Virus record (IMG/VR): IMGVR_UViG_2703718815_000003
DNA: 64,000 nt
Source: a virus
Lineage: Duplodnaviria; Heunggongvirae; Uroviricota; Caudoviricetes
Strand: one strand, 5' to 3'
The position numbers were made by a program, and so were the translations under genes. This document shows positions 5,826 to 64,000 of the stretch, one piece after another. How positions within the stretch are numbered: the stretch's first letter is position 1; every line of letters starts with the position of its first letter. Under the pieces are notes generated by a model, which saw only the letters and a list, made by a program, of their open reading frames with translations, searched no databases and had not been told where the DNA came from.

Positions 5826-6122
5826 GTGTTTTTCCTAATGCTTAAACAAGTTGTTTTCTTATTGGCTTTATTGTGATGTGGCATAAAAGGGGAGCAAGCT
5901 AAACGTAAAGGTGCAAACTCTCTATTTCGGTCAACGAAACACAAGGGCCATTTGGCCCTTGTCATTAACACGTTGCTTTACGGACTAGCGGATAAGCGAA
6001 GTAGATCGCCAGACCAATGAGGACGCCATCAGAAATGACAGACATCATCTTTCCCGTAAAATCCACCAACACCGCCATCACCAGAAGAGCAATGACGATC
6101 ACAAGCCGGAATCTCTCAAGCA

Positions 6123-7385: not shown

Positions 7386-7482
7386 CTTTCTCGTTCCATC
7401 CTGGAACTGTGTCTTACCGACACATTGTCATCCTGACGCCGATAAGATACATGATTTAAAATGATAGGTAAACACTTACTTA

Positions 7483-8073
7483 CTATTTATTATAAACAAA
7501 ACCAATATCTTTCTTGTGAGGCATATCTGCTGCTGAAAAAGCTGCGATCTTCGCGAGTCGATCACATATTTCATTTTCACGATGCCCGGCGTGACCTTTA
7601 ACCCACTTCCAGCGAACATTATGTCGACTTGCGGCCTCATCCAGACGCTTCCACAGATCAACATTCTTTACCGGTTTTTTGTCAGAAGTCATCCATCCAT
7701 TGCGTTTCCACCATTTCATCCACTGTGTCATGCCGTTTTTCAGATACTGGCTATCAGAGTGCAAAATAACGTTGCATGGATATTTCAAACGCTCCAGCCC
7801 GATAAGTGCCCCCATCATCTCCATGCGGTTATTGGTGGTGCTATGAAAACCATCTGAGAACTCGCGTTCCTCACCACGATACTGGAGAACTATACCGTAA
7901 CCGCCCGGGCCACCCGGATTTTTAAGGCAAGAGCCATCACTGAAGATTTTCACGGTTTTAAGCTGGGGATTGAACTCTACGACAGGCGTTGTGGAATTGG
8001 TGCGGGGAGAATTTTTGTTTTTGGCTTTTTTGCGAGTTTTTTCTTGCGATCGGGCTGGTGTCTTCGTCGTCAT
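7483..8073 (-). CDS. rnhA: ribonuclease HI
   Basis: [47 protein letters not shown] motifs; start set at internal ATG 8073 with AGGAG RBS (ORF track extends to 8160). Confidence 0.85.
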
Positions 8074-8658: not shown

Positions 8659-8913
8659 TCATTGTGATTGATTATTTTCTCTACCATGTAGTTGAACATT
8701 CAAGGCAAACACCTCATTGATCAACTCACCTAAAAGCTGTTCAACAAGTTCGCGATGCTCGCCAAGATGCAAGCACTTAATTGCCCATTCGTACAAGTTG
8801 AAAGCCTGCTCACGATCTTTCATCATTTCACGAGCCTGGGCCAGAAAATCGCTCTCTACGAGCGCAACGACATTAGTCGGGTATGACATGTTGGTTTCCT
8901 TAAAGTGGTTCAT
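8659..8913 (-). CDS. hypothetical protein
   Basis: 84-aa ORF. Confidence 0.35.
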   Translation of the reverse strand: MNHFKETNMSYPTNVVALVESDFLAQAREMMKDREQAFNLYEWAIKCLHLGEHRELVEQLLGELINEVFALNVQLHGRENNQSQ

Positions 8914-8994
8914 AAAATCGATTTTAAAGCGTCTGGGAAGGGGTTCTAGTGGATTCTGTAGTGATGTTCAGGTCTGGAGTCTCTGATACAAAAC

Positions 8995-9052
8995 AGCCTG
9001 CTTCCGTATATTAATAATTAATATGTAGTTATTTATATATACAGAAGCAGGC
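8995..9052. repeat. 57-bp palindromic element, copy 1 (cctgcttccgtatat / AT-rich spacer / atatacagaagcagg)
   Basis: 15-bp inverted repeat with one mismatch; near-identical element at 54318..54372. Confidence 0.6.
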
Positions 9053-9074
9053 TAATTACAGACGCCAGAACAAA

Positions 9075-9668
9075 CTAAGCAGCCTTCTTTGATGGTCTTT
9101 TTTTCCTGATCACATTCGCAGGATCATACCCTCCCAGACTTTTCATGACGTCCAAAGGGATCTTGCTTATAGAGTGCCCAGCGTCCTGACAGAATCCTCG
9201 AAAAACAACGAGCATACTGCCACCTGGGTTGATGTTTACTTCTACCTGACCCAGATTGACGTCAGGCTCGACAAACGCTACGCGGCCACCAGACAGAATA
9301 ATCGTCTCATTCGCACACTCTGTTGCACGCTCATACCACTTTGTATCTAGGGATTGAGGAATTAGCATCACTGTTGTAACTCCGCGAGCCTGCTCACGTA
9401 TAGCCGCATCAATCCAGGGGGAGATTTTGGAGTAGGGTGGATTGAGGAAGGCAATTGTACCTGGCTGTCCCCATTCAGATTTCAAAGCATCACGCTCAAC
9501 GCCTATGAAATTAGGCAGCTTTGCATTGTCCTTGTTGCAGGCAACGTCAACATCAAATGTCACTCCAAGATAACGTTGAATGGCAGAAAACAGCCAGTCA
9601 GGTGTTCTCCAGAGGTCACGAAGAGAGTTGTCGCGCTTTCGCTGTTTGATTTTTTCGGCTGCAATCAT
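9075..9668 (-). CDS. DNA N6-adenine methyltransferase, small phage type
   Basis: 197-aa ORF with NPPY catalytic tetrapeptide (AFLNPPYSK) in a small single-domain protein. Confidence 0.65.
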   Translation of the reverse strand: MIAAEKIKQRKRDNSLRDLWRTPDWLFSAIQRYLGVTFDVDVACNKDNAKLPNFIGVERDALKSEWGQPGTIAFLNPPYSKISPWIDAAIREQARGVTTVMLIPQSLDTKWYERATECANETIILSGGRVAFVEPDVNLGQVEVNINPGGSMLVVFRGFCQDAGHSISKIPLDVMKSLGGYDPANVIRKKRPSKKAA

Positions 9669-13446: not shown

Positions 13447-14530
13447 GAATTAAAACCTCGTCCCATTTGAAATCATCCAACTCTGACCATTCATGAGGGA
13501 AAATAACGACCGGATCTGAATGCTCTGGAGCCTGTCGTTTCATTAGCTCACACACACCTTCCATGTGGTTGTTGTACAAATGCACGTCAAAGCCAAAATG
13601 CACAAATGCACCGGCCATGTGACCCGTAATCTTCGCGAGAAAATGAGTGAGAATGCCATAGCCAGCAATATTGAATGGCATACCAACAAAAGTGTCTACG
13701 CTACGCTGTACGAGGCAGGAGTTGAGGATGCGTTTGGGGATTCCAAGTTCATCCAGTTCAGCTTCAGTAACACTGCCGTCCATCTCCAGATCGTATAGCA
13801 TCTTGGTGTAGATAGACTCGTAACCGAGGCGACTGTGTTGAAGACCAATGTCAGTTGCCATCGTTAAACGGGTTTCAAAATCCAGCTCACGACTCCACAA
13901 AGAGAAGACAAAGTGGCAAGGTGGCAGTTTCATATCCTCAAGCTCGCCTACGTTCCATGCGTTAAGCATGATGCGACGATCGGTAGGGTTCGTGCGCAGT
14001 GTATCGACAATACGCTGTAGCTGATCGATTTCACGGGACAGCACTACGCGATCTTCACTGATACCCAGGTATCCCTCGACTTTGTACCCGCGTTCACGGA
14101 AAGTAGCGATCTTGCTCAGATATTCACTATGGCTCACGATGCGGGTATCTTCCCATCGACGCCACTGCTTACCGTAAACCGGCCCCAAATCGCCATTCTC
14201 ATCGGCCCATGCATCCCAAATCTTAACGCCGTTATCCTTGAGAAATTGGATGTTGCCCGTGCCTTTCAGATACCACTCAAGTTCGACAAGCAGTGGCTTA
14301 AGATTTACCGCCTTTCCAGAAATAAGCGGCACAGTCCCACCAGTAAGCATGTAGTAAGAGGGAACGTAGCAGGTGCTTAAAGTACCAGTGCCTGTGCGAT
14401 CATCAGCCTGCACGCCGCTTTTAAGCACCGTCTCAATAACTTTTGCATACGATGCGTTTGTTACCTGACCGTTCGTATGCTCACGATTCAAAAGGAGTGA
14501 CACAAAAACCTCACAAAGATAAGTAACCAC
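13400..14530 (-). CDS. thyA: thymidylate synthase (ThyA type, with insertion)
   Basis: DRTGTGT, WADENGDLGPVYGKQWR, RRIMLNAWNVGELEDMKLPPCH, HLYNNH, YDPLSWIKVPVAV match ThyA; ~45-aa insertion after catalytic Cys. Confidence 0.85.
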   Translation of the reverse strand: MVTYLCEVFVSLLLNREHTNGQVTNASYAKVIETVLKSGVQADDRTGTGTLSTCYVPSYYMLTGGTVPLISGKAVNLKPLLVELEWYLKGTGNIQFLKDNGVKIWDAWADENGDLGPVYGKQWRRWEDTRIVSHSEYLSKIATFRERGYKVEGYLGISEDRVVLSREIDQLQRIVDTLRTNPTDRRIMLNAWNVGELEDMKLPPCHFVFSLWSRELDFETRLTMATDIGLQHSRLGYESIYTKMLYDLEMDGSVTEAELDELGIPKRILNSCLVQRSVDTFVGMPFNIAGYGILTHFLAKITGHMAGAFVHFGFDVHLYNNHMEGVCELMKRQAPEHSDPVVIFPHEWSELDDFKWDEVLILGYDPLSWIKVPVAV

Positions 14531-14580
14531 TTATTAATTACGTGAGTTTACATTTATTGAGAGAACAAGACCAGACAGAT

Positions 14581-23802: not shown

Positions 23803-24056
23803 GTATTTTTCCTTTGTGGTTATTTTGATACAAATTCTAAGAGCAATGAGGAGGTAAACAACTATGCATAACGGTATGTTAGGAATGAAACGAGCGCCTT
23901 AATATACAAAATTTATAAGTAAGTATATACCTATTTATCGTGGCGCAACTTTGCTTGTCTGTATGACTAAAAATAAGACAGGATCACTGTAGAACGCTAT
24001 GAGAGCTATTTTGAGGGGACGTAGATTCTATCTACGCCAATATACGATCTGGAGGG

Positions 24057-24861: not shown

Positions 24862-24900
24862 CTGTAAGCCGCGCCACGACTGGTCTGAAGCCATGTTCAT

Positions 24901-25002
24901 GTATGCTGTCAGCGGTAATTGATAGTCTGTCAGCGGTTCACCGTATGCTGCCAACTGTTTTTGGTATTCTGTCAGCGGCAAATCAAGTATGCTGTCAGCG
25001 GT
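24901..25002 (+). repeat. iteron array upstream of repA (5 direct repeats of GTATGCTGTCAGCGGT)
   Basis: copies at 24901, 24925, 24943, 24966, 24987, spaced 18-24 bp. Confidence 0.8.
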
Positions 25003-25022
25003 TGAATGACAAAGGTGTCCAC

Positions 25023-26117
25023 ATGTCCACAAAAAATAAAAAAGGTAAAAATAACAAAGAAGTAGAAGATAATCTCGACAACTTTGAAGAAGGTTCCCTT
25101 GAATTGTACACAGGGGAACTTGTCCCTAATAGCAACAATACAGTCCAACCAATTGCGTTGATGCGGCTGGGATTGTTCGTGCCCACGCTCAAGGGGACAA
25201 AATACAGCAAGCGTAACAAGCCAAATGAGATCGATGCTTCAAAGGAGCTTGTTCAGCTCGAAGTAGCCCGTTCTGAAGGCTATTCCGATATCAAGATAAC
25301 CGGTCCTCGTCTCGACATGGATCATGATTTCAAAACGTGGGTGGGCGTTGTGCGTTCGCTGGCAGAATACGGCGAACCTAACGGTCGTGTCGAGTTAAGC
25401 ATCACGAAATTTGCGAAGTTTTGTGGCTATCCATCGTCACAGATCCGCAAAACACTCCGCGACCGGCTTACAAACAGTCTTTTGAAGATCATGCGTACAA
25501 CTCTGTCTTTCCAGAGAACGTATGAAGAAAAGAACGTCGACGGCTCTAACAAGATCTCGCTTCTGATGGTGCACCTCATCAATAGCGTGGACTACAACGA
25601 GCAGAAAGATACGGTGGTGTTCTATGCAGAACCGAAGCTGGCCGAACTATATCGCTTTGACCATAAGGTTCTTTTGCAGTTAAAGGTTATCAATAAGCTA
25701 CCACGCAAAGAAACAGCACAGGCTCTGTACACCTTCATCGAAAGTCTTCCAACCAAGCCTGCGCCGGTATCGCTTGCTCGATTGCGTGCGCGACTCAATT
25801 TGAGTAGCAGGAATGTCAGCTCGCAGAATCAGACTATACGCAACGGCTTAAAAGCTCTCCAAGATTTGGGTTATCTCGAATACAGCGAGATTAAGCGAGG
25901 GCGGTCGATCTATATCCAGATTCACAGCCGCAATCCAAAACTCAAAGTCGCACCGCCAAAACCTGAAGACATCGAACCCAAAAAACTAGATGAGAAAGCT
26001 GGGGAAATTGATGCCAAACAGAACATTATCAACAAGATAACCGAACTTTCGCAGAATTTGACGCCTGAAAATATCAAGATGATTGAGATCCTTTCCAATA
26101 GTCTCAAACTGCTTTGA
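25023..26117 (+). CDS. repA: iteron-binding replication initiator RepA-like protein
   Basis: only long plus-strand ORF here; bracketed by direct-repeat arrays; start placed at ATG 25023 after last upstream iteron (ORF track starts at 24903 inside the iterons). Confidence 0.65.
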   Translation: MSTKNKKGKNNKEVEDNLDNFEEGSLELYTGELVPNSNNTVQPIALMRLGLFVPTLKGTKYSKRNKPNEIDASKELVQLEVARSEGYSDIKITGPRLDMDHDFKTWVGVVRSLAEYGEPNGRVELSITKFAKFCGYPSSQIRKTLRDRLTNSLLKIMRTTLSFQRTYEEKNVDGSNKISLLMVHLINSVDYNEQKDTVVFYAEPKLAELYRFDHKVLLQLKVINKLPRKETAQALYTFIESLPTKPAPVSLARLRARLNLSSRNVSSQNQTIRNGLKALQDLGYLEYSEIKRGRSIYIQIHSRNPKLKVAPPKPEDIEPKKLDEKAGEIDAKQNIINKITELSQNLTPENIKMIEILSNSLKLL

Positions 26118-26649
26118 TATGCTGTCAGCGGTGAAATGTATGCTATCAGCGGCTATTTTTCTGAAAAGTATGCTGTAAACGGTTAAATATATGCTACCAG
26201 CGGTATAGTGAGATGAACGTATGCTGTGGGCGGTAAATCATCTATCACCACTCAATGCTCTGTCATACCTCCCCAGTGGTTACTAACCTCGAAGAGTGCA
26301 TTCCATATAGGTTTGCGCTCACTAACATTCTATTGCTATTGCGCTGATTGCTTGTAGTGAAAGGCATTTATTGCCTGCTGCTCCCTGATAGAACGTATGC
26401 TGTCAGCGGTGTTTTATTGAGGAATTTTTGTTTGGATATGCTATCAGCGGTAATTAATGGTATATGTCAGACCTTCGTATGCTGCCAGCGGTAATTTTGT
26501 TCTGGTTATACCCATACCGGTACACATTATTCATGCAATGTCTTAAGTATGCTGTCAGCGGTAAAAAATCGAGTAAAGTATGCTGTGAGCGGTGAGATAG
26601 ACTCTCGATATGCTATCAGCGGTAGTTGATTGTGTATGCTGTCAGCGGT
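26118..26649 (+). repeat. iteron arrays downstream of repA (12 direct repeats in two clusters)
   Basis: copies at 26118, 26138, 26169, 26189, 26219 and 26395, 26436, 26477, 26547, 26578, 26608, 26634. Confidence 0.8.
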
Positions 26650-34077: not shown

Positions 34078-34194
34078 GTGTTTCTCCTTGTTGTGATTTG
34101 GCCGATGGCGCTATGCGCGTTGGGCTTTCGTTCATTCGTGGCTCTTTCGAGCTGTTCAATGATAGATCAGTACTTACTTATTATCTATCAAAAA

Positions 34195-46138: not shown

Positions 46139-46225
46139 TGGCGGAGAGTAATGGAATCGAACCATCATCGCTTGCGCAATGGGACGGTTTTCAAGACCGC
46201 TTGAGCACCATGCTCCCTACTCTCC
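46139..46225 (-). tRNA. tRNA-Ser (anticodon UGA), CCA encoded
   Basis: manual fold: acceptor GGAGAGT/ACTCTCC, anticodon loop CTTGAAA, long variable arm, T-loop TTCGATT. Confidence 0.75.
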
Positions 46226-46438
46226 AGTTGTTGTGGTGCCGGGGGCTTCCCGGTGTCCTTTGGCTGGTTATCCACCGTGGACGGAGCCAATAGTCATCAC
46301 AAAGGATCAATATAACCATTTCCCCGCGTGCGCTTAGCCGCATTCACCACAACGAAAAGAGCACTGTATGACGTTTGCACGGACTTACGCTTAAAACAGG
46401 GCAGTCTCGGCGGTTCTCAATGCTCTTTCCTGTTGTGT

Positions 46439-46514
46439 TGGTGCCGGTTAACGGATTCGAACCGCCGACCATTCGCTTACAAGGCGACTGCTCTACCAAC
46501 TGAGCTAAACCGGC
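46439..46514 (-). tRNA. tRNA-Thr (anticodon UGU), CCA encoded
   Basis: manual fold: acceptor GCCGGTT/AACCGGC, D-arm GCTCAGTTGGTAGAGC, anticodon loop CTTGTAA, T-loop TTCGAAT. Confidence 0.75.
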
Positions 46515-46518
46515 AATT

Positions 46519-46605
46519 TGGTGGGGAGTGATGGAGTCGAACCACCCGAGTCGCAATGACAGTAGATTTACAGTCTACACCGCTACCTCTACGGACTAAC
46601 TCCCC
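46519..46605 (-). tRNA. tRNA-Tyr (anticodon GUA), CCA encoded
   Basis: manual fold: acceptor GGGGAGT/ACTCCCC, anticodon stem GTAGA/TCTAC with loop CTGTAAA, long variable arm. Confidence 0.75.
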
Positions 46606-46610
46606 TAAAT

Positions 46611-46685
46611 TGGCGATGGTGGGTGGATTCGAACCACCGACCAGTTGGTTAACAGCCAACTGCTCTACCGCTGAGCTACACCATC
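46611..46685 (-). tRNA. tRNA-Asn (anticodon GUU), CCA encoded
   Basis: manual fold: acceptor GATGGTG/CACCATC, anticodon stem GTTGG/CCAAC with loop CTGTTAA, T-loop TTCGAAT. Confidence 0.75.
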
Positions 46686-47463
46686 AATTCGGCACTGCCA
46701 GTATTTATTACTCAACAGTGCCAATCGCGACGGTTTAGTTTCTGCCAGGAAACGCACCGCTACTTGCACTTTTCGTTAGTGCCAGACGCTTTCGACTTCG
46801 CTCAATAGTAGAAGGCAAAATCTTTAAGTAGATGATGTTTCTGAGGACAGCACCTACTTTGTAATTTATACAATGTGATGTATGGAATCATTTGTTGTGA
46901 AAACAGGCACCAATGGCAACAGTGGTTAAACCTACACAACAATCCTGTCTTCACAACGTTGAGGCCACTACTCCGATTGAATGTTTGCCCAACATGTTAC
47001 ATATCAACGCTCGCCGGTATCTCTGTGAATAGAACCTTAGAATTGATAAAAATGTAATGGCCTCAACGTTGTGTGCTGGCTAACCATACCAGCCGGGCTA
47101 CGTCGCCGCTTTTTAACCCAGTATAAACGACATAATTGAACAAAATGACGTAACAGGATGGGCGGTCAGAGGCTAAGAATCCGGGAGTCATATGGAGTTG
47201 AAAATATACCGACCGCCCATTCTGTTACTTCATCGGAGGGAACACTCATGTTCCCTCCTGCGTTCTGCAATCACACTCGCTCAGTGTGTCCCATTTCGGT
47301 AACGAGGCTGGAAACTGACCTCGCTGGTGTTTGGCTTATTAGGCTACTGCCAGATAGACTTCTTCGTTTGCACTTGTATTTAAGTTCAAACAGTCGCGTC
47401 TCAACGAAAACAAAGTCATCTTATACATAAAAGATAAGTAAGTAAATACTTATTATTGTGTTT

Positions 47464-52083: not shown

Positions 52084-53424
52084 TTAGGTAACGTCTAAGA
52101 TTCGCTCAATGAAGCGCATTTGTTCGAGGTTTTGTTTAACGCGAATGCTGATCCCTCCCTGCTGGTTACGCGAACCAGCAAAGTAGAGACGAGCCTCTCC
52201 TTTCGCTTCTTCTTCTTCGGTTTTGTTGATCGTTATTACCAGGTCAGCAATACGTACTTTTTCGATGTTGTCGGCAGCGTGCATCATTGTGGCAACTTCT
52301 GACGCGCCACCTTCACGGTTTGTTTGCGATGCTGTGATACCAGCAACGTTGTGTTTGTCATAAAGAGCACGTAAATCGGTGTAGATACTACGAATGTTGG
52401 CGCGATCATCACGAAGGTCATAACTGGCACGCATCAAATCTGCGTAGTCGACAACAAGCATGTCAGGCACCATGCCATTGGCTTTCATGCTGTTAAGCAT
52501 ACGGTCCAGATCTGCCGGTGACATACTTCCTGACGGACGCTCAACAACCCACAAACTACCAATCCCCTTAGTGGCTCCCAACTCTGCCAACTTACGATGA
52601 ACTTCATCGCGCCGTTCCACCAGCTTGGACATTTCCGTCTCCGACAATCTTGCATCAAAGCGGTCGGACAAAATGTTGGTGTGAACCTCCAGCGAGAGAT
52701 ACAGAACATTGTAGCCAGCAAGCGTTGCGTTTATGGAAAACTCACCCATTGCGGTCGATTTACCGGATTTAGCGAACCCCATGAAAAGCACCATTTCGCG
52801 CTTTGCCCAGCCTTTTTGGTACAGCAACCTATCGAGAAGAGGGAGTCCTGTTGTAATACTGTTTGGTACATACTCCTCTGAAGCCTCATATTCACGCGCT
52901 TTCAATCGCTCACTTGCGGAGGTGTAGTAGTCATAGATTCCGGTCGCTTCGTTCGATCCAATCTGCTGAACCTTGGCCATGATTGCCATCGCCCCCTGAA
53001 AGTCGCCTTTCTCTTTCAGTTCAGCAGCCTTAATCAGAGCATCATCAAACGCTACGCTTTTTGCGAAGGTTGATACCTGGTCAACCATGTACGAGGTATC
53101 GGACAATTTTTCTGCAAGGATGCGCTTAAACGCAGCAACAACATCGGCGAATAGTTCCTCACGGATAGTCTTATCGCGTTTCGCACGCTTAAGCATATCC
53201 AGAATTGCAGATGAAGAGGGCGCGCTCTTGTACATACGGTAATAGCCCGAAACCATATTAACCAATATGGCATTGGCCGCATTGGCAAATTGGCTAGGCA
53301 CAACCAGATCTCCCGCACGAGTAAGAAACTCGTGATCACGACAAAAATATGCCGTCAGTCTGTTCTGGAAATCTTCATCAAACTCTTCGGACAGCCCGCG
53401 TCCTGTATGGCAAAGTTCGGTCAT
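52084..53424 (-). CDS. replicative DNA helicase, DnaB family
   Basis: Walker A GFAKSGKST in C-terminal RecA-like domain, N-terminal helical domain; adjacent to primase. Confidence 0.7.
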   Translation of the reverse strand: MTELCHTGRGLSEEFDEDFQNRLTAYFCRDHEFLTRAGDLVVPSQFANAANAILVNMVSGYYRMYKSAPSSSAILDMLKRAKRDKTIREELFADVVAAFKRILAEKLSDTSYMVDQVSTFAKSVAFDDALIKAAELKEKGDFQGAMAIMAKVQQIGSNEATGIYDYYTSASERLKAREYEASEEYVPNSITTGLPLLDRLLYQKGWAKREMVLFMGFAKSGKSTAMGEFSINATLAGYNVLYLSLEVHTNILSDRFDARLSETEMSKLVERRDEVHRKLAELGATKGIGSLWVVERPSGSMSPADLDRMLNSMKANGMVPDMLVVDYADLMRASYDLRDDRANIRSIYTDLRALYDKHNVAGITASQTNREGGASEVATMMHAADNIEKVRIADLVITINKTEEEEAKGEARLYFAGSRNQQGGISIRVKQNLEQMRFIERILDVT

Positions 53425-53467: not shown

Positions 53468-54217
53468 TTAATTAGATAGGGGATCAATAAACCGCCGTGC
53501 TTCTTCCAGTTCTTCTGGAAAGTGGGCGGAAATAAGGCGCTCTGGAACGATTTCCATTAGCCAGATAGCGGAGAAAATTGCGCGTATGCGCTTGCTGCGG
53601 GGGATGGTGCGTAAACGCTCCAGAATCCACTCAAAATAGCTTTCCTGGATCGGGTTGAACTGCATGTCTCCTATATGCTTAAAGCTAACCAGAGAGTCAT
53701 CCAGACGGGTTGTTGCGCGTCTGGCTAATTTCTCTTCAAATATCTCAATCAGTTCTGGCTGCCACAAATGCTGTGGGCGAGGCAGCTTGTCCCACAGACG
53801 TCGTGCAGCTGCGGAAAGAACGGTGGAGATAAAGTAGTCGTATGAGCAGCAATAGCGGTCAGCAAACTGGCGTGCTTTCCATAGCGACGTTTTATTGGCA
53901 GTCGACAACTCCTGATAAGGCAGGCGTTTTAACCCGGTGGTGAACGGAGCTGTTTCAAAGTGTTCGCGACCGTGCGTCAGCATGATATTTGAGTACTGAC
54001 GTTTGTATGCCTCCGTAAACAGACAGGTGGCCATAAGAGGATGCATGTCGCGGTAATCAAACCACTTCGTATCGAAGAGTTCAGCCTCGTCTTTGCAGCG
54101 CGACAAACCAATGTTTTCAGCAACCCACTTATCCATAACAGCGGTATTCCACTCTGTCATGAAGTCGTACTGGTCGTTGTCGATGGTGTCGAAAAAGATT
54201 TGGCTCATGTGGCTCAC
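53468..54217 (-). CDS. hypothetical protein (position suggests helicase-associated function)
   Basis: 249-aa ORF immediately upstream of the helicase gene. Confidence 0.35.
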   Translation of the reverse strand: MSHMSQIFFDTIDNDQYDFMTEWNTAVMDKWVAENIGLSRCKDEAELFDTKWFDYRDMHPLMATCLFTEAYKRQYSNIMLTHGREHFETAPFTTGLKRLPYQELSTANKTSLWKARQFADRYCCSYDYFISTVLSAAARRLWDKLPRPQHLWQPELIEIFEEKLARRATTRLDDSLVSFKHIGDMQFNPIQESYFEWILERLRTIPRSKRIRAIFSAIWLMEIVPERLISAHFPEELEEARRFIDPLSN

Positions 54218-54317
54218 CTGGTAGGTAGTTACTTACTTATCACAATGAGCTGATGATAGCGATTGGTGGCAGTTTTTGGAAGTGGAAACGGAAGGGAGTT
54301 GTTCTGGTGGGTATCTT

Positions 54318-54372
54318 TTGAAAGACCTGCTTCCGTATATTTAATAAGTTACTTATTATTTATATACAGAAA
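54318..54372. repeat. 57-bp palindromic element, copy 2
   Basis: cctgcttccgtatat ... atatacagaaacagg; near-identical to 8995..9052. Confidence 0.6.
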
Positions 54373-54386
54373 CAGGTCATGAATAC

Positions 54387-56090
54387 TTAATTATTAAGCA
54401 ATCTGCTCACACGTAGTTTGTTAAGACTTGATCTAGAGGCCAGTTTCGTTAATGCACCTATTGCTTTATTCGTGATTTTTTGCTGTTCTTCTGTTAGTTC
54501 TTGCATACTTTTGAATCTGAGCAACCCCTTTCTCACTAAATCCAAAGCATCCTGATTGCGGGATAATATCCACTTTAAATAATCATCTTCAGAGAAACTG
54601 TTAAGATATGCTATGTCACTATGATTAAATTTGCCTTCAATTATTTTGTATAAAACATTCTCTAAATTAGTCTCTTCAGGCTTCTTATTCATCAATTTTT
54701 TTTGAATTAGCAGACCTAACTTTTCGTTACCAAATATCTCTACATACAAATTCCGAAAAGCAGTATAAGCATCATCTTGGCTAACAAAGGCATCTGCATA
54801 TGCCTCTATATAACTATCACAATCAATCTCCAATCTATTTAAGATATCAATCAAGCCTATGAAGTGAGCAACAGGTATGTGTGAAAGATTGTCGTTAATT
54901 ACACATTTTATCTTAGAAATAAACTCAGATTCATTGTCCTTGAATGAGTCACTAAAAATATCCCAAACATTGTTAACCTCACATAAAGCCTTGTGTTCTT
55001 TATATTGTTTATTTTTTTCTTCTATTATACCTCGAATATTGCTTTCAGTAGAAAGATAACCATTCTTGAGATAAAAATCTATGTCATCATCGAAAGCAAT
55101 TTCCGCTCGTTCATAAATAATATCAAGACTATTAATAAATGAATATACAGAATCATCCTTTTTATCATCTAACATGTAATCAAATACATGTATGTTTTTA
55201 ATTGATTCTTTAAACAAGGCATAATCAACACCTGGAACACCAGAATAGTAAACCACTGAAAACAGAACCAATCTATTGATAAAACTTTCTCTAACCTTAT
55301 CCTCTGCCAAGCTTAGCTCATTCCTAAGATTAACCAGAGATGTTTTTATTTTATTTAATATACGGATATTTTTAATGCCTAAGTCATTTGCTAAGACTTT
55401 TAACAAAAGAAAATCAGAATCAGTTTCATAAAAAACTTTACGTAAGTTCTTCTCAGGCGTAGGATCGTATTTTATTTCGACATCAATTACTTTTTCTCTG
55501 TACTCTAAAAACTGTTTTTTTGCAGTTTCATCATGTAAATTATCTTCATTTAAAATTAGAACAACTTTGCAGCCTTTTCTTCTTGCCAATTCATCAATTA
55601 CCCCCATAATTTCTTTAACTTCTAGCGAATTACCTTTTCTTTCAACATCATCAATACAAACCAAATAATTATTAACAAATTTATACTCAAGAGATGACAG
55701 CAGGTTATCTGTTTTGAACCCAAAAAAATCGTTCTTTCCGAAATGTATTAAAAATTTTGACAAGGAGTTGTATTTCAACCATCCCAAAAACCCATTTCTA
55801 TAACGAATCATAGTTCGATCCGTTTCAGATAAAATTAGTTCTTTATATTTCTTTTCATTAATTGGTGTGGCACAATGATAAAGAGCTTTTTTAATATCAC
55901 CAATAGAGTTAACCCCAAACAAAGAAACATACGAATATGCATTAAAATCTAATCCTTCAGAATGCTTAGTATAAAAACTATTCCAATAATGAGTTTTACC
56001 AACGCCCCAATCTCCTTTTATGACGGCAACCCGATGATCTGAAACTAGAAAATTTTTTAGAAATGATTCTATCGATTCCATTAGTATCAA
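54387..56090 (-). CDS. KAP-family P-loop NTPase
   Basis: KAP-type Walker A GDWGVGKT and Walker B-like LVCIDDVER; gene markedly more AT-rich than neighbours. Confidence 0.6.
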   Translation of the reverse strand: MILMESIESFLKNFLVSDHRVAVIKGDWGVGKTHYWNSFYTKHSEGLDFNAYSYVSLFGVNSIGDIKKALYHCATPINEKKYKELILSETDRTMIRYRNGFLGWLKYNSLSKFLIHFGKNDFFGFKTDNLLSSLEYKFVNNYLVCIDDVERKGNSLEVKEIMGVIDELARRKGCKVVLILNEDNLHDETAKKQFLEYREKVIDVEIKYDPTPEKNLRKVFYETDSDFLLLKVLANDLGIKNIRILNKIKTSLVNLRNELSLAEDKVRESFINRLVLFSVVYYSGVPGVDYALFKESIKNIHVFDYMLDDKKDDSVYSFINSLDIIYERAEIAFDDDIDFYLKNGYLSTESNIRGIIEEKNKQYKEHKALCEVNNVWDIFSDSFKDNESEFISKIKCVINDNLSHIPVAHFIGLIDILNRLEIDCDSYIEAYADAFVSQDDAYTAFRNLYVEIFGNEKLGLLIQKKLMNKKPEETNLENVLYKIIEGKFNHSDIAYLNSFSEDDYLKWILSRNQDALDLVRKGLLRFKSMQELTEEQQKITNKAIGALTKLASRSSLNKLRVSRLLNN

Positions 56091-56102
56091 TCCTTTAATT
56101 CA

Positions 56103-56129
56103 TATATTGGGCGTAACAAACGCCCAATA
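56103..56129. repeat. hairpin/palindrome between parG-like gene and KAP NTPase gene
   Basis: atattgggcg-taacaaa-cgcccaatat 10-bp inverted repeat. Confidence 0.5.
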
Positions 56130-56132
56130 TAA

Positions 56133-56492
56133 TCAACCTTTCTTCATCAACTCTCGTTTAATTTCATCGGTACGCATCGTAACGTCGGCAGCTGTGATCG
56201 CCTCGTTAAGCTTCACGATGTCCTCGATTTCCTGCGGTGACTTCTCTGCCAGATGGAAAATGGCTGCTCGAATCACGTCAGAACGAGTGAACTTCTCGAA
56301 GCGAGGGATGAACTTCATCATCTCCAGCAGTTCGAAGTATTCGTCCTCCAGTGACATTGTGCGGCTTTTAATTTTCTCTTTGCCACGAGTCGGGCGTCCC
56401 TGTGGTCTGACTGGTTGGCGCAAAGGAGTTGTGTTCTTAGCCGGTGCATCAGGCTCTTTGCGCTTTGCTAGGTCACCCATTTTCATGGACAT
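56133..56492 (-). CDS. ParG/ParB-like small partition protein (RHH-type, tentative)
   Basis: 119 aa; basic disordered N-terminus, C-terminal strand-helix-helix-like segment; start overlaps parA stop. Confidence 0.45.
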   Translation of the reverse strand: MSMKMGDLAKRKEPDAPAKNTTPLRQPVRPQGRPTRGKEKIKSRTMSLEDEYFELLEMMKFIPRFEKFTRSDVIRAAIFHLAEKSPQEIEDIVKLNEAITAADVTMRTDEIKRELMKKG

Positions 56493-57160
56493 TATTCTTC
56501 TTCCTCCAGACTCAACAGATAATCTACAAATTCTTCAAACTCGGCTTCCGCCTTTTTGTCGCGCTCGCTACCGGTCATTTCAAAGATAGAACGACCAGAC
56601 TCTTCCGCATCATCATAGACGTTGCGGTTATATAGATTGACTGGCGCAGACTCGATTCCAAACGTCTCAACAATCTCTTTAGCCGCCAGAATGCGAGACA
56701 CTTGTGATGGCAAAGCCGGGCACTGGTTCATGACCGCGCGGACCTTCACTTTATCGTTTACATTGCGAACATTGTCGATAATAGGATCGATGTCACGTAA
56801 AGATTTCAAATCACGACGCTTAGGACGCAGCGGGATAATGATAACGTCAGCCATCAGCATCGCTTGTCGCTGAATTTCGGAGTCGAAGCCACCAGCATCT
56901 ACCACTACAAACTCAGCTCTACCCTGAAGCGATTTTAGGTGCTTAATGATGTCATCCTGAACGTATGCAAAAGGAATCAGCTCAAGGTCTTCGTTCTGTC
57001 GACGGTCTTCACACCAGCTCGTTGTCGTGCGCTGAATATCTATATCGGTAATATAAACCTTCTTCTTCTTTTTGACTTTCAGGCAAACGGCAATTTGCTG
57101 GGCAACGGTGGATTTGCCAGGCCCGCCCTTTGTGCCGCCAACCACAAAGATCTTGGTCAT
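56492..57160 (-). CDS. parA: ParA-family partition ATPase (small type Ib)
   Basis: deviant Walker A VVGGTKGGPGKST, Walker B FVVVDAGG. Confidence 0.8.
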   Translation of the reverse strand: MTKIFVVGGTKGGPGKSTVAQQIAVCLKVKKKKKVYITDIDIQRTTTSWCEDRRQNEDLELIPFAYVQDDIIKHLKSLQGRAEFVVVDAGGFDSEIQRQAMLMADVIIIPLRPKRRDLKSLRDIDPIIDNVRNVNDKVKVRAVMNQCPALPSQVSRILAAKEIVETFGIESAPVNLYNRNVYDDAEESGRSIFEMTGSERDKKAEAEFEEFVDYLLSLEEEE

Positions 57161-60651: not shown

Positions 60652-63600
60652 TTACATTTTTGCCTTCAGTTCGCGCACTTCCTCGCGCAGCTCTTTGACA
60701 GCCTCGACCAACATGCCGATAACGCCGTTGTAGTTAAGACGCAGACGAGGCTCTCCTGACTGATCGTTATGGTCAACCGTTACCAGTTCAGGCTGAACAT
60801 TCTGGACGTCCTGAGCGATGAGGCCGCCAGACTGCTCATACCGGTCACAGACCTGAATCTCGTACAGAACACCTTCGATCCGATCCAGCTTGTCGAGCGC
60901 TCGTTCAATCTTGCGAATATTGCGTTTGCTACGACGGTCAGAGCGGATATAAACGTCATTAAAGCTGCCATTACCGCCACAAACCCAAGTACCATCATTC
61001 TGGAGGTATGCGTTCGCATCCGTGCCGTTTGCGGTACGTGAGTTGTTGATCATGTAAAAACCAAACTGACTGTTTCCCAAGCCACCCAAGAAGAATTTGC
61101 GATCCGCGTGGTCTTGTCTCAACAACGCTTGTGCAGAGCTTGTACTTACAGCGTTCCTCCCGAAGATGACGTTCTGGTTACGCATATCTATCCACGCGCC
61201 AGAGCCGCTGTTGATGGAAAAACGGTTGGCGTAAACCCACGCACTTGACGTGATGTCACCCGTTACACTCAACGGCTTAAGGCTTTGCAGCGTGCTATTA
61301 ACGAACCTAAAAACATGGGCGCTATTGGCGTAAACATCCAGAATGCCATCTCCGTTCTGTTTAAAGCCGGTGTCATTGTCACCCAGAACAATGGAATTAC
61401 CGCCAAGACCATTGACCACACCCAGCCCAAGACCACCGTTAACAACAGCACCATTGCCCATTGTTACTCTGCCATTAGTGAGATCTACATAAAATGGACG
61501 AAGCGAACCTATATCACCATTTTCTCCCTGGTCTTTTGCTGTCGGGATAAGGTAAAAATTATTTTCGGAACGGCGAAAAATCATCCCGTATGCCGCATCG
61601 TAAATGCGTAACCCATCCGTAGAGCGGATCTTAAGCTGTCCGGACATCGTACCGCCGCTGTTTTTCATAAATAGCGCATCAATCCAGCCTGCAAATCCCG
61701 ACTTATTAATGTATAAATTTCCATCATTTGCCAGAATGCCTCCACCTTGCGTCTTGAGGGGCTGACTCACATTTTGCAGCGTCAGCACACCAGTCATTGT
61801 TCCGCCAGAAATCGGTAACGCACCGACATCAGCCGCAGTGGGTTTGAGAGCAGTGTTGTAATCTCTGCGCCAGGCAGGGGCATACGCGCTACCGTGATTA
61901 ATATAGGTGAACTGAGCACTGGCAATACCACCTCCGGTTGTCGTTGTAGGCGTAGTAACTCGGATGGTCATTGCGCCTTCGTGACCTAAAACCTCGATAA
62001 CCGCACCAGCAAGACAAATATTGCCGACACCTGTATCAGTGATAATTTTATTGTCGGCATATGACCAAGAGCCTTTCATCATCCAATACGGTACGGCGAA
62101 AGCACCACGCTCCTTCAGCCATGCGATAAATTCAGCGGTAGTCCAGTTGCCAGCCCCAGTACTGTATGACGCGCTAAACGTCTGTGCAGCCCCAACATCT
62201 TTCGCTGTGGGTTTATGAGCAGTGGTATAGACCTGCGCCCAACCAGACCAATTCGCTGTCGAAGTATCACGGCGTGAACGAACATAAACCGGTGCATGAG
62301 CACCATCCGTTCCGCTCCAGCCAACAAGCATCTCGCCCTCACCAGAAGCACTCGCACCTTTCATGTGCAATACGTTGCCATACATGGTCGGGTAGCTATT
62401 GTTGTACGCCTCATACATTTGAATGCCAGCAGTGCCTTGAGTAGAGCCGCTTAACGCCGTAACTCGGCCACGAGATACCAATGTATTAATATTGATATCG
62501 CCTGAACCATCAAACTTAACACCATTGATGTTTCTCGCTGTTTGCAACTTCGTAGCCGTTGAAGCATTGCCATTCAAGCTACCATTTACGCCACCAGTAA
62601 CATTGAGTCCATTAGCGATCGTAACAGCACCATTGGCATTGTTAATGATAAGCGGCCTTAAACTATTATAGGTTCCCAGGCTGTTACCCGAATTGGTCAA
62701 CATGAAATATGTGTTTGAACCATCGTTTCGGATAAAGAATCCGTAGCTTCCGTAGGCAATGCGCAGACCATTCGCCGATTTTGAAATGATCTCACCAGTA
62801 GCCGTTAAACCGCCGTTGAGATTTCCTCCGGTTATTGGTAATGCGCCGACATCCGTGGCGGTCGGTTTAATGTGCGAACTGTAAATGACATATACCGTTC
62901 CATCAGTAAGACCAGTTGGTTTATTCGCTGTATAAGTTGGTGATGTATGAATCGTTACGCTGGCGTTACTGGTATAATCCCACTGAATATTAACACCTGT
63001 GGCGTAATTACCTATTTCAACATAAACATCATAGGTATCACCGGATGTATTCACCCATGCAAAATTAGTAAATCCAACCGATGTCCGTCGCCATAATGCA
63101 CCAGTAATACCCTTTGGATTTCCATTTCCGGCACGCAGAACCAGCTCAGAGATGCCTGCTTGATGCGGGGAGCCAACGTTATACCCTGCACCACCAATCA
63201 GGCTTATGTAAACCACGGAACTGGCCTGTGGCATGGTTACAGTTGCCAGCTTGAACCATCCGGCACCACCACTAAAAGATATTGTTGCTGAGTTGATCGT
63301 GCCTATAGACCTTGGAGTTAGCTCAATGTTTTTAGAACCGTCAAACGACACCCCATTAATAGTACGCGCAGTCTGCAACTTCGTAGCAGTAGCCGCATTA
63401 CCTGTTGTATTCTGATTACCAGTCGTATTAACACCTGGCAAATTAATATTTGCAGTACCATCAAAGCTCACGCCGCCGATAGTTCTTGCCGTCTGTAGTT
63501 TTGTAGCAGTTGCGGCATTACCAGTGGTGTTCTGATTACCCGTAGTATTTACACCTGGAAGGTTGATATTTGCAGAACCGTCGAAACCAACTCCACCGAT

Positions 63601-63966
63601 AGATCTTGCCGTCTGCAATTTCGTTGCTGTACTTGCATTACCATTTAATGTTCCGGTGATACCACCAGTAACAGACAACGGACCTGAAACTGTTCCTCCG
63701 GTTGTTGGCAGTGCTCCAATATCTAACGGCGTCGGTTTCTGATGTGTGCTATACATCGTATAAACAACACCATAGGTAACGCTGGAAGGCTTACTCGCTG
63801 AATATGTTGGCGATGTATAAATAGAAACTGACGCATTTGCAGTACAATCCCAATGGATATTTACACTCGTCGCATAATTGCCAATTTCAACGTAAATATC
63901 ATATGTATCGCCGGATGTGTTGATCCAGGCGAAATTCGCTAATCCGACAGCTGTACGCTTCCACAA
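60652..63966 (-). CDS. tail fibre protein with C-terminal intramolecular chaperone domain (5' end beyond window)
   Basis: repeated NINLPGVNTTGNQNTTGNAATATKLQTARTIGGVSFDG modules; C-terminal ...YIRSDRRSKRNI... Ser-Lys motif; ORF open to the window edge. Confidence 0.75.
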   Translation of the reverse strand: MWKRTAVGLANFAWINTSGDTYDIYVEIGNYATSVNIHWDCTANASVSIYTSPTYSASKPSSVTYGVVYTMYSTHQKPTPLDIGALPTTGGTVSGPLSVTGGITGTLNGNASTATKLQTARSIGGVGFDGSANINLPGVNTTGNQNTTGNAATATKLQTARTIGGVSFDGTANINLPGVNTTGNQNTTGNAATATKLQTARTINGVSFDGSKNIELTPRSIGTINSATISFSGGAGWFKLATVTMPQASSVVYISLIGGAGYNVGSPHQAGISELVLRAGNGNPKGITGALWRRTSVGFTNFAWVNTSGDTYDVYVEIGNYATGVNIQWDYTSNASVTIHTSPTYTANKPTGLTDGTVYVIYSSHIKPTATDVGALPITGGNLNGGLTATGEIISKSANGLRIAYGSYGFFIRNDGSNTYFMLTNSGNSLGTYNSLRPLIINNANGAVTIANGLNVTGGVNGSLNGNASTATKLQTARNINGVKFDGSGDININTLVSRGRVTALSGSTQGTAGIQMYEAYNNSYPTMYGNVLHMKGASASGEGEMLVGWSGTDGAHAPVYVRSRRDTSTANWSGWAQVYTTAHKPTAKDVGAAQTFSASYSTGAGNWTTAEFIAWLKERGAFAVPYWMMKGSWSYADNKIITDTGVGNICLAGAVIEVLGHEGAMTIRVTTPTTTTGGGIASAQFTYINHGSAYAPAWRRDYNTALKPTAADVGALPISGGTMTGVLTLQNVSQPLKTQGGGILANDGNLYINKSGFAGWIDALFMKNSGGTMSGQLKIRSTDGLRIYDAAYGMIFRRSENNFYLIPTAKDQGENGDIGSLRPFYVDLTNGRVTMGNGAVVNGGLGLGVVNGLGGNSIVLGDNDTGFKQNGDGILDVYANSAHVFRFVNSTLQSLKPLSVTGDITSSAWVYANRFSINSGSGAWIDMRNQNVIFGRNAVSTSSAQALLRQDHADRKFFLGGLGNSQFGFYMINNSRTANGTDANAYLQNDGTWVCGGNGSFNDVYIRSDRRSKRNIRKIERALDKLDRIEGVLYEIQVCDRYEQSGGLIAQDVQNVQPELVTVDHNDQSGEPRLRLNYNGVIGMLVEAVKELREEVRELKAKM

Positions 63967-64000
63967 AGCACCTGTAATTCCTTTGGGGTTTCCATTGCCT

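Follow-up and report, generated by a model that had tools for sequence, protein, structure and literature searches.

A 64,000-nt stretch of viral DNA (IMG/VR record IMGVR_UViG_2703718815_000003), referred to here at its full length as the window, comes from an E. coli phage-plasmid of SSU5-like type and carries a long imperfect palindrome at two distant loci. The palindrome belongs to an element family that is real, conserved and hitherto undescribed, and that is confined to SSU5-like phage-plasmids, the full genomes of which hold three syntenic copies, here termed S1, S2 and S3. We lean toward the view that the copies are terminator or insulator hairpins that divide a genome, with nearly all genes in one direction, into three modules, this being the best-supported function because a fall in RNA, the structure, the position and covariation all bear it out. 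The two copies in the window are the following.

S1 hairpin: 8995-9053, minus strand, 59 nt, arms at 8997-9011 and 9037-9051; seen from the sequence and its fold, and syntenic in SSU5, Cyrano and Klebsiella relatives
S2 hairpin: 54324-54378, minus strand, 55 nt, arms at 54326-54340 and 54362-54376; seen from the sequence and its fold

The original prediction, which was made from the letters of the window, had proposed a palindromic element at two distant loci, and this was borne out. Its position for the second copy (54318-54372) was about 6 nt off. S1 has the layout AG-CCTGCTTCCGTATAT-(25 nt of A+T)-ATATACAGAAGCAGG-CT and S2 the layout GA-CCTGCTTCCGTATAT-(21 nt)-ATATACAGAAACAGG-TC, the right arms of the two copies differing by 1 base. 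When the arm pattern was searched with up to 3 mismatches, the window gave 5 matches against 1.15 expected, and none of 100 shuffles gave as many as 5. The fifth match, at 9389, has 3 mismatches and lies within the methylase gene, and is a chance match. The window is 97-99% identical to CMS-2020a, Cyrano (pLF82) and PhiR41_1, which are Escherichia phage-plasmids related to Salmonella phage SSU5. The search for further copies that the original prediction had called for turned up the third, S3, in each full genome at a site outside the window. The genome is circular, of about 108 kb, and nearly all of its genes are co-oriented. In CP054387, the copies lie at 30,712 (S2), 61,734 (S3) and 93,248 (S1), and the distances between them are about 31, 31.5 and 47 kb. 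Each copy begins a block of genes: S3 that of packaging, structural, lysis and par genes, S2 that of replication genes and S1 that of the remaining genes. S3 itself is located 25 nt past an 88-aa gene, which encodes a wHTH protein, and 117 nt ahead of terS, the first gene of the terS-terL pair.

A pattern scan of IMG/VR gave at least 47 distinct element sequences among at least 120 matches listed. In PLSDB, 644 plasmids carry the element, and they spread over eight or more enterobacterial genera, including Escherichia, Klebsiella, Enterobacter, Yersinia, Salmonella, Citrobacter, Cronobacter and Shigella. On plasmid pMT1 of Yersinia pestis CO92 (NC_003134.1, 28565-28634), an S3 identical to that of SSU5 lies, unannotated, upstream of terminase-like genes. 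The element is present in 259 of 5,426 complete E. coli genomes, at 514 places, none of which is chromosomal. No annotation stands at the element in those genomes, and RefSeq likewise has no feature at these sites. Rfam scans of both loci returned only sub-threshold, generic miRNA-like hairpins (best score 27.8 bits against a gathering score of 100), literature searches on the repeats, origins and termini of SSU5 and pHCM2 found nothing relevant, and the arm sequences had no match in the searchable literature. The element is a repeated, conserved cis-element and not a one-off terminator. The outcome that the original prediction had named as its refutation, an ordinary terminator with no conservation in relatives, came true by half: S2 looks like a terminator in published RNA sequencing (RNA-seq) data, yet conservation of the element is strong.

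Hairpin structure and transcription across it

As minus-strand RNA, S1 folds with -27.8 kcal/mol (z = -5.4) and S2 with -28.7 kcal/mol (z = -7.7). The plus-strand fold of S2 reaches -19.2 kcal/mol (z = -2.4); S2 folds better as minus-strand RNA because both of its arm differences are G-U pairs on that strand only and C-A mismatches on the plus strand. The single arm difference of S1 is, in the same way, a G-U pair on the minus strand and a C-A mismatch on the plus strand. In the predicted RNA, 17 bp form the lower stem and 5-7 bp the upper one, with a small internal loop between them. The stem of the family as a whole measures 24-27 bp. The base of the stem, about 10 bp, contains G+C (CCUGCUUCYG/CRGAAGCAGG), and its upper part consists of A+U only. 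The typical consensus of the spacer is CCTGCTTCYGTATATATAAATAATAAGTNACTTATTAAATATATACRGAAGCAGG, and a further class of loop is found at S1. The hairpin often has an A-rich run before it and has a short U-rich run after it, the sense tails after the stem being GUUUUGUAU at S1 and UUUCAAAAG at S2. The mean number of U residues in the first 9 nt of sense and antisense tails is 4.9 and 3.2 at S1, and 4.6 and 4.0 at S2.

Among 52 distinct copies, arm positions 1-4, 7 and 11-14 (9 of 15) are invariant. Position 9 covaries, with C-G in 13 copies, T-A in 7, T-G in 22 and C-A in 10, a pattern of genuine covariation in which intermediates are present; a double change was seen once at position 6 and once at position 8. 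In the same phylogenetically related copies, G-U pairs in sense and antisense orientation number 17 and 1 at S2, 7 and 1 at S3, and 7 and 12 at S1. A diverged Klebsiella S2 maintains its pairing via four sense-strand G-U pairs. A search with the 249-aa protein encoded next to S2 gave six loci, one of which was usefully diverged; in that lineage, where the 249-aa protein is 64% identical, the CCTGCTTCT-N-TATA arms are retained and the loop and flanks are changed. The TerS relatives in IMG/VR were uninformative as a divergent sample, all of them being at least 86% identical. The proposal in the original prediction that the arms are under selection thus gains support, from both the invariant positions and the persistence of the arms where loop and flanks have changed. 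The accompanying statement that spacers differ while arms are conserved is correct within the window and fails across relatives, in which the spacers are also conserved and are partly self-complementary.

All genes that adjoin the two window copies are on the minus strand, and the main ones, in the order in which they are transcribed at each site, are listed here.

9075-9668, minus strand: Dam-family N6-adenine methyltransferase, the last gene before S1 (PF05869, 2.5e-38)
8659-8889, minus strand: 76-aa gene (phrog_5343), the first after S1, its start about 105 nt from the hairpin
56133-57160, minus strand: parA (56492-57160) and a 119-aa parG-like gene (56133-56492), the operon whose transcripts enter S2
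54387-56090, minus strand: KAP-family P-loop NTPase, the cassette in the slot upstream of S2 (PF07693; PADLOC PDC-S49, 2.3e-22)
53468-54217, minus strand: 249-aa gene (phrog_2500), the first after S2
52084-53424, minus strand: DnaB-like helicase, after the 249-aa gene

The parG-like protein appears, from its sequence, to have ribbon-helix-helix character. Genes that read into the element stop 8-30 nt away from it (the Dam methylase, the parG-like gene where the slot is empty, the KAP NTPase and the 88-aa gene), and genes that read away from it start 106-127 nt off (the 76-aa gene, the 249-aa gene, terS and a GIY-YIG gene). In the window, the methylase stop codon lies 21 nt from S1 and that of the KAP NTPase 8 nt from S2, in agreement with the original placement of both copies at gene 3' ends.

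Published gene-level RNA-seq data for Cyrano/pLF82 in strain LF82 (PMC9928086, supplementary table) gave normalized values of 49.8 for parA, 89.1 for the parG-like gene and 54.6 for CYRAN_30, the gene in the slot. These three genes are co-directional, and the stop codon of CYRAN_30 lies 21 nt before S2. The first gene past S2, CYRAN_31, had a value of 6.2, which is under the background of 9.8 (PMC9928086). In another condition, log2(5+FPKM), FPKM being fragments per kilobase per million mapped reads, was 10.42 before S2 and 2.56 after it (PMC9928086). The fall in RNA across S2 in these data thus ranges, by condition, from about 9-fold to about 1000-fold. Across S3 it is 3-4-fold, and at S1 expression is at background upstream and higher downstream (PMC9928086). 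Because expression is higher downstream of S1 than upstream, a promoter probably lies after the S1 hairpin. At all three sites the hairpin has the position of an intrinsic terminator, and at S2 that position coincides with the RNA fall.

In the mechanism that we propose, each copy, transcribed from the gene strand, would fold into the 24-27-bp hairpin with the short U-rich run after it, and host RNA polymerase would stop there, possibly in both directions, so that the blocks are insulated from read-through. A promoter in the conserved leader of 106-127 nt would then restart transcription, and defence genes such as the KAP NTPase would have been inserted between the last gene of the par operon and its terminator, S2. 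We read the RNA drop at S2 as termination rather than processing, and we would extend terminator function to S1 and S3, with bidirectional action and leader promoters as further putative parts of the mechanism.

Several observations weigh against termination and insulation as the function. The RNA-seq data are gene-level, come from the lysogenic state and are informative for one copy only. The sense tails of S3 have a mean of only 2.9 U in 9 nt, which is a weak U-tract where intrinsic terminators have one of about 7-9 nt directly 3' of the stem, and a consensus terminator scan called neither window copy. The stems are far longer than those of typical intrinsic terminators, while the same genome has ordinary short G+C terminators. 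S1 lacks the sense-strand bias of G-U pairs, and the wobble and covariation counts come from phylogenetically related copies and are, therefore, non-independent. The arm sequence itself, and not merely its pairing, is kept across diverged lineages. S2 is, in many relatives, flanked by two genes that diverge from it and start 112 nt and 108 nt away, and the CCAGA boxes described below are symmetric on both flanks whatever the direction of transcription.

One other explanation starts from the transcript as well. The hairpin may be an element of RNA processing or stability, that is, a long stem in a polycistronic RNA that is cut by RNase III, as are the R sites of T7, or a protective hairpin at a 3' end, which would separate upstream from downstream messages and set their half-lives. 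An RNase III site needs about 20 bp or more of double-stranded RNA, and the 17 bp, small internal loop and 5-7 bp of the predicted stem, about 24 bp stacked, are adequate in length. The recurrence of a similar hairpin between co-directional cistrons and the weak U-tract, especially at S3, speak for such a site, and cleavage followed by decay of the downstream RNA would produce the same RNA-seq picture at S2 as termination. However, the downstream leaders appear to carry promoters of their own, as judged from the higher expression after S1 than before it, no Rfam family matched, and processing leaves unaccounted for the symmetric DNA boxes on both flanks. We consider this explanation unlikely.

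Three kinds of sequence at the leaders or starts of genes also stand out. A near-palindromic box of about 21 nt, TTAAACAAGTTGTTTTCT, occurs at 5842, 6571, 16793, 28231, 53442 and 57194, just upstream of starts such as those of parA and dnaB, and twice in the terS leader (locus L004, 11830-11900); it has the look of an operator or promoter element on which a global regulator would act. An imperfect inverted repeat, GATAAGTAAGTA-N-TACCTATC, lies 15-35 nt ahead of many start codons, including that of the 249-aa gene after S2, and may be a class of promoter or operator. Its sites include 2483-2522, 7459-7495, 14512-14539, 23908-23942, 34154-34193, 47427-47461 and 54226-54250, with others besides. 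The terS leader that follows S3 holds a canonical G+C hairpin and U-run, GAGCGCATGGACGCGCTC then TGTGTGTTTT in the sense direction (L004, 11830-11850), about 10 nt ahead of the terS ribosome-binding site, and this hairpin may be an attenuator that governs entry into the late operon.

The variable slot at S2

The window resembles CP053388 and a Klebsiella genome exactly up to 54376, the end of the S2 arm, and does so again from 56132-56135, at the parG-like stop codon. The interval is a slot with alternative contents, and the features of it that have not been listed above are these.

54379-56132: slot between the S2 hairpin and the parG-like stop codon
56104-56130, no strand assigned: small G+C hairpin, ATATTGGGCG-TAACAAA-CGCCCAATAT, between the parG-like stop and the KAP start, seen from the sequence; part of the cassette

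Where the slot is empty (locus L034), the parG-like stop codon is followed by 30 nt and then S2. Elsewhere it holds 824 nt with a DUF2971-like gene of 262-267 aa (in Cyrano and others), 931 nt with a divergent GIY-YIG nuclease gene (in CP053388 and many IMG/VR contigs), or 1195 or 1981 nt with a gene of 351-374 aa, the larger version also having a DUF2971-like gene. Examples of slot contents lie at L006, 28861-29793, and L150, 3587-4390. The window has 1756 nt with the KAP NTPase, a cassette that, among four close relatives, is found in CP054387 only. In PADLOC, the KAP cassette matches PDC-S49, the GIY-YIG cassette PD-T4-3 and the DUF2971-like cassette PDC-S31; the 351-374-aa protein had no PADLOC match. 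Because these cassettes match models of defence systems, the slot is, as judged by homology, a defence-gene hotspot.

The original prediction had also considered a recombination site and a miniature mobile element. To the first, S2 alone conforms, with its break in similarity at the end of the arm. In a mosaic analysis, the pairs that were discordant across the element numbered 0 of 528 (0%) at S1 and 16 of 861 (1.9%) at S3, against 68 of 903 (7.5%) at a neighboring control; at S2 they numbered 100 of 231, which is high because of the cassette slot. A general junction for module shuffling, of the PeSL kind, was rejected on the lack of mosaic excess at S1 and S3. S2 is a conserved landmark, and probably a homology arm, that bounds an insertion slot at the tail of an operon.

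The second proposal would make the palindrome an element like a miniature inverted-repeat transposable element (MITE), or a site of site-specific recombination, that moves or captures gene cassettes. In its favor, the palindrome is imperfect and is accompanied by inverted repeats on its outer side (GGTCTGGGAG ... CTCCCAGACC), and at S2 homology stops where the arm ends, while the slot beyond has five or more different contents. Against it, the copies occupy three fixed syntenic positions only, no site was seen without the element, no target duplication is evident, and S1 and S3 show no mosaic excess. The other edge of the slot is the parG-like stop codon, which is expected from homologous exchange between conserved flanks. 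A host MITE was rejected on the absence of chromosomal copies noted above, and an integron attC on the arms (CCTGCTTCCGTATAT/ATATACRGAAGCAGG), which lack the RYYYAAC/GTTRRRY core, and on the copies, which are single and not arrayed. The miniature mobile element of the original prediction is contradicted by the fixed sites, the lack of presence/absence polymorphism and the 0 chromosomal places in 5,426 genomes, and we regard a mobile or cassette-capturing role as very improbable.

Flanking boxes and possible recognition at the DNA level

On both sides of the element, most of 44 non-redundant flanks carry an outward-reading (C)CCAGAC/CCAGAA box at 13-22 nt from the arm. At least six unrelated classes of flank have such boxes, often with additional ones farther out, and at the Klebsiella S1 the box spacings are about 11, 20 and 23 nt. 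The background frequency of CCAGA is 0.0018 per nt, and two full genomes contain, outside the element, no cluster of four or more CCAGA boxes, be it at promoters or elsewhere. In the diverged lineage, the boxes are faint or missing. In the window, the KAP side of S2 has no box, and the three boxes present are as follows.

8971-8979, minus strand: box CTCCAGACC, outward from S1, on the transcript-downstream side
9065-9071, plus strand: box CCAGAAC, outward from S1, between the hairpin and the methylase stop codon
54301-54310, minus strand: box CCACCAGAAC, outward from S2, on the transcript-downstream side

S3 forms an imperfect extended dyad of about 130 bp, with flank-shuffle z values of about -3 to -6 on both strands; by the same shuffles, the extended dyad is moderate at S1 and mostly absent at S2. 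For an outer RNA stem in which the CCAGAC boxes pair, there is support at S3, partial support at S1 and none at S2. Because changes in the boxes are uncompensated on the opposite flank, pairing alone is insufficient to explain them. Simple termination would need neither the constancy of the arms nor the inverted CCAGAC boxes nor the S3 dyad, and these features, together with an SSU5 record that ends inside S3, suggest an added step of recognition by a protein. Exact E. coli Chi octamers (GCTGGTGG/CCACCAGC) adjoin some copies, namely the left flanks of S1 in the diverged lineage (L143-L145) and the end of the 88-aa gene (L004, about 12020); the S2 box of the window, CCACCAGA, matches Chi at 7 of 8 positions, which may be coincidence.

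One hypothesis built on these features, and in line with the protein-binding site that the original prediction had named, is that a phage or plasmid protein would bind the invariant inverted arms and the flanking inverted boxes, while the A+T-rich center melts or is extruded as a cruciform. Candidates for such a protein are TerS, the 88-aa wHTH protein and the 119-aa parG-like protein. Such a site might serve in packaging (pac-like, given S3 by terS), in the initiation of lytic replication at three spaced origins, or in partition or silencing through dispersed centromere-operators like those of N15 and pSM19035. We hold this hypothesis as a tentative one, which we would not expect to be correct but which deserves a hearing. 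The constancy of 9 of 15 arm positions, the survival of arms where loop and flanks diverge, the outward boxes found in clusters nowhere else, the extended dyad of S3 and the ends of the SSU5 record inside S3 all argue for it. In addition, in the empty slot S2 lies 30 nt past the parA/parG-like operon and directly ahead of the helicase/primase genes. Against this, pairing within a transcript is indicated by arm position 9, which covaries, and by the preference of G-U pairs for the sense strand at S2 and S3, and the diverged lineage has weak boxes or none.

The location of S3 by the terminase genes can be considered together with the ends of database records. The linear SSU5 record (NC_018843.1, positions 1 and 103299) ends with ...GTGACTTATTA and starts with AATATATACGGAAGCAGG, both within the S3 loop, so that the candidate terminus junction within S3 reads ...ACTTATTA followed by AATATATAC. 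The Cyrano record (OV696614.1) has the same cut with a 1-nt offset, and both cuts fall 8-9 nt from the center of the S3 dyad. These ends represent either a real virion end or an artefact of assembly or co-linearization. The Cyrano record is a re-annotated pLF82 that its authors compared with SSU5; its start was probably copied from SSU5, and it is thus probably co-linearized and non-independent. No IMG/VR contig scanned starts inside S3, nor does PhiR41_1. T4 packages its DNA by a headful mechanism, and the nearest solved relatives of TerL are the TerL of P74-26 and T4 gp17, a point against a precise cos site. If the three copies were equivalent pac or cos sites, the genome would be cut into pieces, and S1 and S2 are not near terminase genes.

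An origin of replication at S1-S3 as marked by GC skew, which shows no switch at any copy, was rejected, but a lytic origin may yet lie there. The sites also lack the marks of an iteron-type origin, and the plasmid replicon lies elsewhere, at 24.9-26.6 kb, where the sequence evidently encodes one of the iteron type.

25023-26117, plus strand: Rep_3-family initiator gene (PF01051, 3.9e-9)
24900-25009 and 26109-26638: arrays of iterons of about 15 nt, TATGCTGTCAGCGGT, flanking the Rep_3 gene

Binding by a protein and termination may also be combined. The hairpin could be a DNA landmark for a phage-plasmid protein, marking three lytic origins, a place at S3 where terminase enters or cleaves, the other two copies being its cognates, or sites of partition or silencing, and could double as a terminator. 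We find this rather doubtful. If it were true, replication, packaging and transcription of the three modules would be coordinated from the same three points. Two features of the window lie apart from the element.

46139-46685, minus strand: tRNA cluster (Ser-TGA, Thr-TGT, Tyr-GTA, Asn-GTT)
62504-63992: tandem and dispersed repeats of 120 nt and 300 nt, 68-75% identical, in a gene that is probably a tail-fibre gene

Significance and comparison with known systems

SSU5-like phage-plasmids are common in clinical Enterobacterales and include relatives of Y. pestis pMT1 and carriers of resistance genes, and their cis-regulatory architecture is essentially undescribed. The three-copy signature at module boundaries is an aid for typing these genomes and for splitting them into modules, and it gives a way into the question of how the par operon can be transcribed in the lysogen without this transcription reaching the replication and late genes. 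S2 is a precise downstream landmark of a defence-gene hotspot with homologues of PD-T4-3, PDC-S49 and PDC-S31. If the arms and boxes bind a protein, the element would reveal the logic of origin, packaging or antitermination in the SSU5-like family.

Termination, which we favor, invites comparison with the bidirectional intrinsic terminators of enterobacteria and their phages. The element shares with them a stable hairpin after a stop codon, an A-run before it and a U-run after it, as well as the abrupt downstream fall in RNA at S2 and the proposed insulation of adjacent operons. It differs in the stem, which is 24-27 bp and mostly A+U where 5-14 bp of G+C is usual, in a U-run that is short or poor, in the symmetric CCAGAC boxes on both flanks, and in a sequence that is near-invariant over three sites and eight or more genera. 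The RNase III sites of T7 (R0.3 ... R18.5) and lambda sib are long inter-cistronic hairpins, those of T7 having a characteristic internal bubble at the cut. The element resembles them as a family of similar long hairpins, with stems of sufficient length, between co-directional phage cistrons, but T7 has no counterpart of its DNA-symmetric flanking boxes.

The PeSL cassettes of T4-type phages, which Arbiol et al. are said to have described in 2010, are reportedly repeated stem-loops that lie by promoters at gene boundaries and flank variable, non-essential open reading frames. Here, too, a repeated stem-loop lies at gene boundaries and, as at S2, variable reading frames are flanked. Unlike the PeSLs, which are numerous and thought to shuffle generally, the element has three copies, two of them without excess mosaicism, and its leader promoter is putative. 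Defence-gene hotspots of P2-like phages and P4-like satellites, reportedly the subject of work by Rousset et al. in 2022, are said to be fixed slots with alternative anti-phage genes. The slot at S2 is likewise fixed between conserved landmarks of a temperate element, with PD-T4-3, PDC-S49 and PDC-S31 here, but it belongs to another element family, and its edges are the stop codon of the par operon and the S2 hairpin.

REP/BIME and ERIC of enterobacteria and Correia of Neisseria are chromosomal repeats of tens to hundreds of copies, variably present, which can act as terminators, stabilizers or RNase III targets. They are, as is the element, imperfect palindromes in transcribed intergenic regions; in contrast to them, the element was found on no E. 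coli chromosome and keeps to three fixed sites in a single family of replicons. N15 has four SopB sites and pSM19035 its omega sites, and the parS sites that are known consist either of heptad arrays or of short, uninterrupted palindromes. The likeness to these centromere sites lies in the few palindromic copies placed round a phage-plasmid near the starts of operons, one of them beside the par operon. The difference is that the 15-bp arms here are split by 21-27 bp.

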